Source: a virus
Lineage: Duplodnaviria > Caudoviricetes
Virus record (IMG/VR): IMGVR_UViG_3300014656_000044
Span: 1-44,285 of that record
Strand: one strand, 5' to 3'
Length of the DNA stretch: 44,285 bases
Shown here: piece after piece, positions 2,817 to 43,771 of the stretch
How positions within the stretch are numbered: the first letter of the stretch is position 1
Layout of the letters: each line of letters opens with the position of its first letter
Program-made: the position numbers and the translations under genes
Notes under the pieces: generated by a model
Told to the model about the DNA's origin: nothing
Database searches by the model: none
Seen by the model: only the letters and a program-made list of their open reading frames with translations

Positions 2817-3280
2817 CACATATCCTCGACAACCTGTTCCGGTATCCGGACAAAATCGCCGTTGGCCGCGACAATATCAAATTGCTCACTCCCTCCTGGA
2901 CCTACCCTGCACCAGATTGTACCAATACAATCCTGGGTACTGGTCCGACCTGGCGGCATCCTTTTCCAATTAACGGGCAATTCATCACGCATTGCCCTTT
3001 CTACGATACTTTTCAAGCTTGCGCTTGGGGTGGTCAATTGGTCATACAGTTTCCAGTTTGCGTTATCCATCGCTTCCCCCTTTCTAACGCGGTGTAACTG
3101 CTGGTTATCGTCAGGGTCTAATGACGGCATTCCCCATCTTTCCCCCCAACACGAAAAATGAATAGGGAGACACGGAAGAATACAAACATATAAATCAAGG
3201 CAATTACCGTCTCTTTGCCAAAAAACTCCCATCCAAAAATCTTCGATTTTAAACTTTAATTCAATATTCCAGTCCCGCAT
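2783..3280 (-). CDS. Hypothetical ORF; probably two cassette genes (starts 3280 and 3070) fused in frame across a deleted attC
   Basis: Internal RBS and ATG at 3070 match the one at 2757; collapsed attC at 3082-3110. Confidence 0.6.
   Translation of the reverse strand: MRDWNIELKFKIEDFWMGVFWQRDGNCLDLYVCILPCLPIHFSCWGERWGMPSLDPDDNQQLHRVRKGEAMDNANWKLYDQLTTPSASLKSIVERAMRDELPVNWKRMPPGRTSTQDCIGTIWCRVGPGGSEQFDIVAANGDFVRIPEQVVEDMCVNQQLHPTNG
3082..3110 (-). repeat. Internally deleted attC (sister of 2769-2816)
   Basis: CGATAAC CAGCA GTTACACC GC GTTAGAA; L' arm missing. Confidence 0.75.
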
Positions 3281-6064: not shown

Positions 6065-6080
6065 TTCACACCTCAACCAC

Positions 6081-6156
6081 AAAAAAAACCCGTGGAACAG
6101 CATCAGGCGTAAGCTGGCCTGCCCGACACATTACTGTATCAGGGTTCCACGGGTTT
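6081..6156 (-). terminator. Large-loop terminator/attenuator upstream of the HNH-initiator genes
   Basis: 13-bp perfect inverted repeat AAACCCGTGGAAC/GTTCCACGGGTTT followed by a T run. Confidence 0.65.
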
Positions 6157-6207
6157 CGTTTGTTTTCGATGTTAATAATCATACGCTTACTTCCTTATGC
6201 TCCCCCG

Positions 6208-10512: not shown

Positions 10513-11181
10513 TCACCGCCTGAAGGTTATCCCTGCAAAAGCATTATCCGCCCGTACCTCTTCGGGGATATGGCCATAGCCACTGACTCCATCAAAAGCA
10601 AACCAGTCTTCCGATAATCTCAGGCAGGTATATCCGACGTTTACACTGATTGACCAATCCCTGCCAATCTGCTTGTTCATACTAAAGGTAACGGCGGCCA
10701 ATGGTCCCCCCTGGATGTCGTGGTCATACGATGTAAGCCCGGTAAATCCACGCTTTCCAAAATAGAGCATCGCGGCTTCGTGAAATGTCGCCCGGTCTTT
10801 CCCCATTGTCGCCCACGGATGAACCCAGCCGACATCGGCCGATAGGGTGAGGCATTTAAACAGGGTCTGATGTACGCCTAACCCGCCCCCGGCCATGGTC
10901 AGCTTGTAGGCTTCTTGACCGTACACGCCCCTGAAGGTCTGCCCGGCTCCGGCCCATACGGATATCCAGTCACCGGATAGGCGGAAGTTGACCCAGGGAC
11001 CGGACCGAAGTTCTTTATTGCAGTAAAAGTTGTATCGGGATTCGGCGGAGAAGCTGGCTGCATGGACCTTTTCTAAATCCATACAAATGATAAACAGCAG
11101 GGCCATGATCAGGAAAAGAAAGAAGGCGATCCATCCCATACGGGATGCAATCTTTTTATGTGCGATGAGGTATTTGTCCAT
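10513..11181 (-). CDS. Putative outer-membrane beta-barrel protein
   Basis: Signal peptide ending VHA; amphipathic Gly/aromatic strands; C-terminal AFAGITF. Confidence 0.6.
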   Translation of the reverse strand: MDKYLIAHKKIASRMGWIAFFLFLIMALLFIICMDLEKVHAASFSAESRYNFYCNKELRSGPWVNFRLSGDWISVWAGAGQTFRGVYGQEAYKLTMAGGGLGVHQTLFKCLTLSADVGWVHPWATMGKDRATFHEAAMLYFGKRGFTGLTSYDHDIQGGPLAAVTFSMNKQIGRDWSISVNVGYTCLRLSEDWFAFDGVSGYGHIPEEVRADNAFAGITFRR

Positions 11182-11200
11182 GTCGGCCTCCTTGTTTGGA

Positions 11201-11228
11201 GGCCAAAGGCGGGTATTTCAGGTGTGAC
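11201..11228 (+). repeat. 28-bp direct repeat, copy 1 (GGCCAAAGGCGGGTATTTCAGGTGTGAC)
   Basis: Identical to 11584-11611. Confidence 0.95.
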
Positions 11229-11235
11229 GCTAAAG

Positions 11236-11264
11236 ACGTTACACTATTGGATTTTATTTGTCAA
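11236..11264 (-). promoter_or_regulatory. Leftward sigma70-type promoter
   Basis: TTGACA-17 bp-TAACGT. Confidence 0.7.
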
Positions 11265-11334
11265 TCAAAAAATACCGATAGCTCATATTGGATCGAACAT
11301 GAATAACGAATGTTGTGCTGCAGTAAAAAAAAGC

Positions 11335-11364
11335 TTGACAATCGTTACTTATCAGTTTACTTAT
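11335..11364 (+). promoter_or_regulatory. Rightward sigma70-type promoter with TTACTTAT tandem boxes
   Basis: A-tract, then TTGACA, 17 bp, TACTTA; TTACTTAT at 11345 and 11357. Confidence 0.6.
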
Positions 11365-11369
11365 ATATT

Positions 11370-11558
11370 ATGGAAATAGAAATTAAAAAATTGGAGTGCC
11401 TAAGGTGCCACCATACTTGGATTCCAAGGCAGTCTGAAGTCAGGATATGCCCGAAATGCAAATCCGCCTATTGGGACAAGGCCCAACCCGACCAACCTTT
11501 AAGGATGACTGACCCTGCGGGGATCCGACAATCCGGGAAGTCTGGGAATGGGCAGTAG
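11370..11558 (+). CDS. Small zinc-ribbon protein, probably leaderless
   Basis: CLRC.H.W.PR...CPKCKS.YW; no SD, ATG at the expected +1. Confidence 0.7.
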   Translation: MEIEIKKLECLRCHHTWIPRQSEVRICPKCKSAYWDKAQPDQPLRMTDPAGIRQSGKSGNGQ

Positions 11559-11583
11559 GCGGGGCAACCAAACAACCTAACCG

Positions 11584-11611
11584 GGCCAAAGGCGGGTATT
11601 TCAGGTGTGAC
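11584..11611 (+). repeat. 28-bp direct repeat, copy 2
   Basis: Identical to 11201-11228. Confidence 0.95.
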
Positions 11612-11675
11612 AACCAAAATGCCTTTGCCCACAGACCCCCACCCTCCGGGGTGGGGAGAAAGGGGGTCATTGTTG

Positions 11676-11822
11676 ATGATATACCATATTAAAGTTTGGT
11701 CTCTTACCCTCGTATTTCTGGGCGGCATTGCATTGACCGGTTGTGAGAGCGCCTATTTCCCTCTCCCGAATATTGCGGGGATTGGGATTGTGGCACTCGT
11801 CGGCTTGATTGCGTGTCAATAA
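11676..11822 (+). CDS. Small membrane protein/lipoprotein
   Basis: Two hydrophobic segments, LTGC lipobox-like motif; stop inside attC R''. Confidence 0.55.
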   Translation: MIYHIKVWSLTLVFLGGIALTGCESAYFPLPNIAGIGIVALVGLIACQ

Positions 11823-11875
11823 CCAGCCGCATTACCGGACTGCGCTACGCTACGCCGGTGAGCTAAGTGTTAGCT
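11817..11875 (+). repeat. attC-like site (59 bp)
   Basis: CAATAAC CAGCC GCATTACC GG[A]C...GCC GGTGAGC TAAGT GTTAGCT. Confidence 0.8.
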
Positions 11876-15247: not shown

Positions 15248-15306
15248 GGCTAACCACCCGCTCCACCGGACTGCGCTACGCTACGCAGGTGATCAACCCG
15301 TTATGG
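15248..15306 (+). repeat. attC-like site (59 bp)
   Basis: GGCTAAC CACCC GCTCCACC...GGTGATC AACCC GTTATGG; shares ACCGGACTGCGCTACGCTACGC with 11817. Confidence 0.8.
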
Positions 15307-43133: not shown

Positions 43134-43162
43134 TTGACATGTACGTAAATAGCGTATATATT
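43134..43162 (+). promoter_or_regulatory. Strong early sigma70 promoter
   Basis: A-tract UP element, TTGACA-17 bp-TATATT. Confidence 0.8.
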
Positions 43163-43329: not shown

Positions 43330-43350
43330 ATCACGAGGCCAACTAATTCC

Positions 43351-43381
43351 GGGGGCCGCGCATCCTACACGCGGGAAAGGA
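43351..43381 (+). repeat. 31-bp early-gene leader repeat, copy 1
   Basis: Identical copy; ATG 43389 follows. Confidence 0.95.
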
Positions 43382-43734: not shown

Positions 43735-43765
43735 GGGGGCCGCGCATCCTACACGCGGGAAAGGA
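43735..43765 (+). repeat. 31-bp early-gene leader repeat, copy 2
   Basis: Identical copy; ATG 43772 follows. Confidence 0.95.
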
Positions 43766-43771
43766 CCAAAA

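Follow-up and report, generated by a model that had tools for sequence, protein, structure and literature searches.

What is the role of an exact 28-bp direct repeat whose two copies flank a pair of divergent phage promoters? We analysed the complete virus record of 44,285 bp in which it lies (the window), whose head and tail genes are of podovirus type. The locus is placed between two gene arms. The leftward arm ends in helicase/methylase, HNH and replication-initiator genes, and the rightward arm carries methylase, Erf, exonuclease and NinB-like genes. We take this position to be that of the immunity region in lambdoid phages. The divergent promoters are predicted ones, 71 bp apart, and both have weak -10 boxes. 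The initial annotation had proposed a toehold-type antisense switch between the two transcripts. As analysed here, the locus is real, non-random and partly conserved, and its mechanism is predicted.

As had been annotated, the copies (copy 2 at 11584-11611; other features in Table 1) are identical at 28 of 28 positions. They lie 383 bp apart, and the sequence occurs twice in the genome even when three mismatches are allowed. The chance expectation of such a repeat is 1.7e-8. Contigs from two other studies cover both copies with 0 differing letters and no joint, so the repeat is not an assembly artefact; these contigs are from the same phage and contribute no covariation. Among viral contigs, the exact 28-mer was found in this phage only. 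Runs X6, X7, X8 and X10 contained only identical pieces or other zinc-ribbon genes.

Table 1. Features of the repeat locus, in window coordinates.
Feature	Positions	Strand	Basis or remark
First leftward gene, 222 aa, predicted switch target	10513..11181	-	ORF; N-terminus signal-peptide-like
SD-sequestering leader hairpin	11183..11206	-	7 Watson-Crick pairs (9 with U-G and U-A), 6-nt loop; SD GGAGG in 3′ arm
Repeat copy 1	11201..11228	-	predicted first 28 nt of leftward mRNA
Predicted leftward sigma-70 promoter, TTGACA(11264-11259)-17-TAACGT(11241-11236)	11236..11264	-	consensus match
Predicted rightward promoter, TTGACA-17-TACTTA	11335..11363	+	6 nt ahead of zinc-ribbon ATG
Two tandem 14-bp operator-like palindromes, family consensus TTACCTATAGGTAA	11345..11370		overlie rightward promoter
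Leaderless 62-aa CxxC..CPxC zinc-ribbon gene between the copies	11370..11558	+	ORF absent from the initial annotation
Predicted antisense hairpin: copy 2 as 5′ arm and loop, closed by 11613-11630 (also given as 11612-11630); apical GGU-GUGACA-ACC	11583..11630	+	fold
Second hairpin, 8 bp, UCCG tetraloop, just 5′ of small-ORF SD	11637..11656	+	no U-run
48-aa small membrane protein gene	11676..11822	+	two hydrophobic stretches, lipobox-like LTGC

The annotated leftward promoter-like site is present. It scores 9/12 and was omitted from the promoter scan listing because only three of six bases match in its -10 box. Sites of the strict form TTGAC[AT]-16/18-TA...T number two in 44 kb, at 11264(-) and 43134(+); a filter widened ad hoc to take in TACTTA adds 11335(+), which gives three. 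The first purine, 7 nt past the -10 box, is G11228, the last base of the repeat, and the predicted +1 is at or beside it. We counted in favour of a switch that this predicted +1, which belongs to one of the two to three best promoters, coincides with the end of the repeat. Given this start, nucleotides 1-16 of the leader would be mainly single-stranded (mean unpaired 0.84), and 6-nt windows starting at nucleotides 1-13 would cost 0.2-0.5 kcal/mol to open.

The hairpin said to hide the SD of the first leftward gene also held up: its z score is -3.84, and the unpaired probability of the SD is about 0. Alone, the RBS of this gene costs 16.4-17.0 kcal/mol to open; in a comparison of 36 genes its 16.5 was the highest cost (next 11.5, median gene about 4). 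When random 28-mers were substituted for the repeat, the occlusion was matched in 4 of 400 trials. From the top rank and the rarity of such random matches, repeat and hairpin look co-adapted. On the minus strand no terminator was called at the leader, and no U-tailed terminator follows the leader hairpin.

A dyad at 11221-11245 (7/8, 7-nt spacer; also given as 11222-11244) spans the end of copy 1, the leftward start and the -10 box. It scored as a plus-strand terminator-like site and may be an operator or a rightward terminator. We also considered a rightward RNA, cis-antisense across copy 1, that would stop at this hairpin, and rejected it, as no promoter was seen for it.

The 222-aa leftward protein is a predicted outer-membrane beta-barrel: its structural neighbours in the atlas are OmpW / OMP_b-brl (TM 0.64-0.73). 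It matched no Pfam family at E 0.1. Among 199 candidates it found only itself, which makes it a singleton as far as these searches reached. A single-sequence AlphaFold model had a pLDDT of 32 and was unusable. The ORF has a good SD and is followed by the next ORF after 7 nt, with gaps of -59 to 73 nt as far as the helicase.

On the rightward side, relatives of the 62-aa zinc-ribbon protein are encoded at 23 other viral loci (L006-L028) and 11 MAG loci (L093-L103). Its Pfam zinc-ribbon matches are weak, there is no close sequence in the PDB, and tblastn gave no match in 50,697 isolated-phage records, where the region has one 27-nt chance match. A word search with the zinc ribbon returned no candidate, by a method that is insensitive, since relatives are known from the other search. 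With duplicates dropped, TTGAC[AT] lies within 80 nt of the start at 19 of 30 other zinc-ribbon loci. An 8/10 match to TTACY-N4-RGTAA was present at 20 of the 30, against 4.4 expected from shuffles, an excess that is inflated because the motif was chosen by eye from the same loci. A matrix built from the other loci, the window being excluded, scored 11345 highest and 11357 fourth highest among all positions in the window. The recurrence of promoter layout and palindromes in the family supports the rightward promoter. No terminator was called between this promoter or the zinc-ribbon gene and copy 2, which begins 25 nt past the zinc-ribbon stop; we counted the recurring layout and the absence of a terminator call for a switch as well.

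These sequence patterns suggest that the zinc-ribbon protein is likely an autoregulating repressor. More widely, zinc-ribbon proteins of 40-60 aa with the pattern CxxC..W.PR..CPKCKS form a family in environmental phage contigs; their genes are often leaderless and carry TTACY-N4-RGTAA palindromes in the promoter. This tiny leaderless family, apparently without a name so far, is a candidate for minimal Cro-like repressors. The locus had been annotated as having no cI-like gene. That holds for family matches: among 63 + 24 + 28 proteins scanned, none matched an integrase or cI-like family, except for a sub-threshold HTH match at 719-1135. It probably does not hold for function, as the locus has a likely repressor gene, the zinc ribbon, whose promoter contains conserved palindromes.

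Another reading is that the repeat acts as DNA, as a protein-binding operator or a recombination site flanking the promoter/zinc-ribbon module. We consider this very unlikely. Copy 1 does adjoin the 7/8 dyad over the leftward start and -10 box (11222-11244), and the direct repeats delimit a 383-bp unit. Against this, copy 2 lacks a second dyad half, the zinc-ribbon operator matrix ranks neither copy, and no joint across the repeats was found in four DNA runs, in which contigs show presence only. A deletion between the copies would also lose both early promoters, and the stem covariation described below favours RNA.

In the RNA, copy 2 would form a bulged hairpin of -19.2 kcal/mol with a modest z of -1.9. 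Its apical loop carries the complement of the first bases of the leader. Copy 2 lies 65-92 nt 5′ of the ATG at 11676, which starts the 48-aa gene. This protein matched no named family; its homologs P0003 and P0004 (63-69% identity) are encoded at loci L104 and L106. Opening of the small-ORF RBS costs 4.4 kcal/mol locally and 4.6-10.5 kcal/mol with longer context, and pairing with the leader would close it by a further 0-3 kcal/mol. Alternative stems overlapping this RBS had been annotated. They do exist in the sequence near 11635-11668, but the 8-bp C(UCCG)G hairpin prevails, and since the predicted effect of pairing is only 0 to +3 kcal/mol, no strong switching is predicted from them.

The first codons of the small ORF overlap, in another frame, a D-D/E-I-P-Y-stop tail (window 11671-11693, L104 365-387, L106 640-663). 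In L106 this tail is the end of a real gene lying upstream, which suggests that the small gene retains a relic of a former overlapping neighbour.

We computed how the two RNAs would pair. Their net binding is -27 kcal/mol. In the duplex, the opening cost of the OMP-like RBS falls to 4.8-8.3 kcal/mol. This gain of about 8-12 kcal/mol is the largest predicted effect at the locus. The copy-2 RNA had been described as complementary to the first 28 nt of the leader, including GGCC of the anti-SD arm, and it is these last four repeat bases, which invade the anti-SD arm, that carry the gain: with the antisense trimmed by 2 nt the RBS cost was 11.8, and with 4 nt removed it was 15.9 and the gain was gone. 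That this end of the repeat is the anti-SD arm, and that the RBS cost drops in the duplex, was also counted for a switch. The cheapest seeds join leader nucleotides 1-16 to the loop side (2.2-3.8 kcal/mol summed); seeds further in cost 6.9-16.8 kcal/mol.

The claim that pairing opens the RBS hairpin thus stands in part. The opening would be partial, with 5-8 kcal/mol left against about 4 for the median gene. The cofolding that the initial annotation had suggested as a check lowered the RBS cost in the duplex, but one optimum leaves the 7-bp SD stem intact because the swap of GGCC partners is nearly isoenergetic. Long RNA duplexes are RNase III substrates. A perfect duplex of 28-29 bp would likely be one too, and a leader cut anywhere before nucleotide 25 refolds shut (16 kcal/mol), so the outcome could become decay.

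On this modelling we propose that the copies form a loop-to-5′-end antisense switch that would activate translation of the OMP-like gene, a reading that we hold at just short of probable. That the pairing is functional, with either sign, we consider fairly probable. The rightward transcript from the zinc-ribbon promoter would read through into the copy-2 hairpin, whose loop would engage the predicted leftward mRNA at its free 5′ end; we infer both transcription starts. The duplex would then zip over 28 bases and displace the lower half of the SD-hiding hairpin. The freed SD would turn on translation of the predicted beta-barrel gene, with activation as the presumed net effect. More speculatively, the zinc-ribbon protein may set the dose of the trigger RNA, and OMP translation may gate the leftward arm through coupling or polarity. 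What suggests such gating is solely the tight gene packing of this arm, which begins with the OMP-like gene and runs to the helicase and replication genes.

A metagenome scan for the small ORF returned four loci: this phage, L104, L106 and one chance match. In L104 the small gene opens that phage's own recombination arm and is likewise preceded by the two hairpins. Together the two L104 hairpins have a z of -6.0, and the homolog of the copy-2 hairpin alone -2.8. We compared the pairs of window and L104, two sequences with pairs indexed by hand. Of 22 pairs, 15 are the same, four changed on both sides, one changed on one side and two are broken. The copy-2 hairpin accounts for 14 of them (nine same, two two-sided, one one-sided, two broken) and the second hairpin for eight (six same, two two-sided), its tetraloop changing from UCCG to GCAA. 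A 15-nt loop region is unchanged, and 18 of the 28 repeat columns are identical. From two sequences, this pattern of change would be that of a kept RNA structure. Covariation had been named beforehand as a check, and it gave four two-sided changes, but between two sequences only and with no partner leader in reach: the L104 contig reaches only some 300 nt beyond the small gene on its upstream side, too short to include any partner copy, and extension gave nothing. Positions 1-280 of L104 are hairpin-rich (first 140 nt z = -2.55) and include a 10-mer that also occurs at window 11302-11311, between the two promoters, which may be chance. In L106 the small gene overlaps the stop of the upstream gene and has no hairpin module.

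The repeat might also be only a recent duplication scar absent from relatives. For copy 2 this is weakened, as L104 keeps the covarying two-hairpin module and copy 2 is thus not a mere scar, but the perfect identity of the copies still fits a recent duplication. A related explanation makes the two-hairpin module an ancient element that acts in cis, for protein binding, processing or antitermination at the head of the recombination arm, and copy 1 the product of a single duplication that plays no part in RNA-RNA pairing. The module heads the recombination arm in both phages, and the copies are 100% identical to each other compared with 18/28 between copy 2 and its L104 homolog. We nevertheless regard this explanation as rather unlikely, since a random copy is not expected to fall at the predicted +1 and the anti-SD arm at once (4/400) and two RNAs with open seeds and a net binding of -27 kcal/mol could hardly fail to pair if both are transcribed.

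A second locus with two copies would bear on both explanations: the architecture with both copies was seen at one locus, which counts against the switch, and the absence of another agrees with the cis-acting element. None was found in any viral, metagenome or genome search. Among the best five repeats per locus, no exact repeat of more than 14 nt straddled the zinc-ribbon gene in the 23 other loci. For local matches flanking the zinc ribbon at 21 loci (two duplicates dropped), 20 did not exceed the shuffled maximum; L009 had 21 against 20. A pattern of promoter plus GTCACACC returned 119 loci from 36 of 64 collection parts, 87 of them distinct and 39 with short flanks only, and the longest second copy from the 5′ end was 9 nt. 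No new homolog of the module was found by nhmmer over the collected loci and a covariance model over 83 sources. The small-ORF profile matched none of 401 genomes, and a separate search with it gave one weak match of five. The genomes searched were chosen around one MAG carrying a zinc-ribbon gene and may not be the host group of the phage. Rfam covariance models (c4, isrK, sar and others) gave no hit at gathering score in the window, with sub-threshold matches only (E 0.26-7).

Several candidates from these searches were rejected. The hairpin pattern found nine viral loci, of which one is this locus and eight were rejected on inspection (L112 lies inside a coding region). In genomes, a pattern search found one in 339, rejected as within a coding region. 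Covariance model R2 found two in 151 genomes at 25-28 bits, and these were rejected because the loop was not kept.

The small membrane gene suggests a pairing of the opposite sign. In loci such as tisB/IstR-1, shoB/OhsC, zorO/OrzO and dinQ/AgrB, the genes are divergent and do not overlap, and the small hydrophobic ORF has a long 5′ UTR in which the complementarity lies, away from the start codon (PMC4147584). By analogy with the first three, the leftward 5′ end would bind the leader of the 48-aa gene and block a standby site and/or trigger RNase III decay of both transcripts. We judge such repression unlikely, though less so than the other rivals. The geometry of the genes is that described for this class in the same source, with a divergent layout and a small hydrophobic protein (48 aa). 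The conserved hairpin accompanies the small ORF and not the OMP gene, as L104 shows, and in L104 hairpin 2 reaches over the end of the SD and the AUG, which are paired there. The direction of the small-ORF RBS change on pairing and the refolding of a cut leader would also fit repression. In contrast to a discrete, terminated, non-coding antitoxin, the "antitoxin" here would be the leader of a protein-coding mRNA, which lacks a U-tailed terminator and goes on to an ORF of 222 aa that has a good SD. Pairing is also predicted to affect the small ORF far less than the RBS of this mRNA itself. In L106 the homolog overlaps the stop of an upstream gene and has no module, which is not what one expects of a tightly guarded toxin.

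We compared the proposed activating switch with other known systems. It resembles DsrA/rpoS and the crRNA/taRNA riboregulators, in which the RBS is masked by a 5′ hairpin and freed when a second RNA base-pairs with the arm that inhibits it (PMC2831331, PMC4737173). Both features of such anti-antisense action are predicted here: a cis hairpin occludes the RBS, and the second RNA lowers the computed opening cost from 16.5 to 5-8 kcal/mol. Unlike those systems, two phage RNAs would take part, from the divergent promoters, with a perfect 28-nt match that comes from a direct repeat in the DNA and a trigger that is an intercistronic mRNA hairpin.

As in the IS10 pair RNA-IN/RNA-OUT, pairing is predicted to start between an mRNA 5′ end and an antisense loop (PMC4737173). 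Whereas IS10 is an overlapping cis-antisense system that represses, the partners here do not overlap, do not arise from opposite strands of the same DNA (the repeat is 383 bp away), and the SD is predicted to be freed. Action of RNase III is reported for RNA-IN/OUT (PMC4737173) and zorO-OrzO (PMC4147584).

In P22, sas arises from the early-left transcript, and sieB is divergent. This antisense RNA of a phage governs how a superinfection-exclusion gene is translated (PMC12197685, PMC7067206). Unlike the RNA proposed here, sas has an overlap with its target and acts by switching between start codons. The sequences showed no likeness, and an exclusion role for the beta-barrel is putative.

The geometry is not of the toehold type that had been annotated. 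As in the synthetic toehold switch (Green et al.), a single-stranded 5′ toehold would precede strand displacement into an RBS hairpin. In that switch, however, the RBS is kept in the loop, the AUG is bulged out and pairing is linear-linear (PMC7247568), whereas here the SD lies in a stem and the trigger is a hairpin whose loop would meet a 5′ end, not an unstructured linear RNA. The locus lacks a defining feature of the toehold, of the IS10 cis-antisense and of the type I class.

Phage antisense RNAs in the reviewed material cited here mostly repress and overlap their targets, and the activators PreS, StxS and IsrK either target host mRNAs or use other routes (PMC12197685). A partial survey of the literature, which does not establish absence from print, found no report of such an arrangement in a phage or of the zinc-ribbon family. 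If the switch is true, it would be a compact equivalent, in nature, of engineered riboregulators: two RNAs, perfectly complementary yet not overlapping, from divergent early arms, whose pairing opens an RBS. One short duplication could then recruit an existing hairpin to regulate a newly gained membrane gene. A bolder version, which we rate as rather doubtful, is that the 28-base duplication created a natural riboregulator pair in which an RNA of the recombination arm would license the first gene of the replication arm and hence, through coupling or polarity, the arm itself. This would be an RNA AND-gate or timer in place of cI/Cro, and the trigger dose would be set by leaderless zinc-ribbon repressors of about 40 aa, a widespread family.

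Other repeats and structures were seen in the window. Related repeats with TAAC...GTTA ends (families D3, D4 and I1) lie between small genes at 11820-11875, 15251-15303, 2497-2560, 2750-2782 and 3063-3095; presumably they resemble the ends of integron attC cassettes. The consensus promoter at 43134 is followed by three copies of a 31-33-bp exact repeat (591-624, 43349-43381 and 43735-43766), and at the end of every copy an SD-like motif precedes an ATG. A 12-bp tandem array at 115-420 lies within the ORF at 141-575. At 6070-6172 (-), between a nucleotide-enzyme gene and the HNH/replication genes, a long stem closes two small hairpins and is followed by a U8 run, a candidate structured terminator or attenuator inside the leftward arm.
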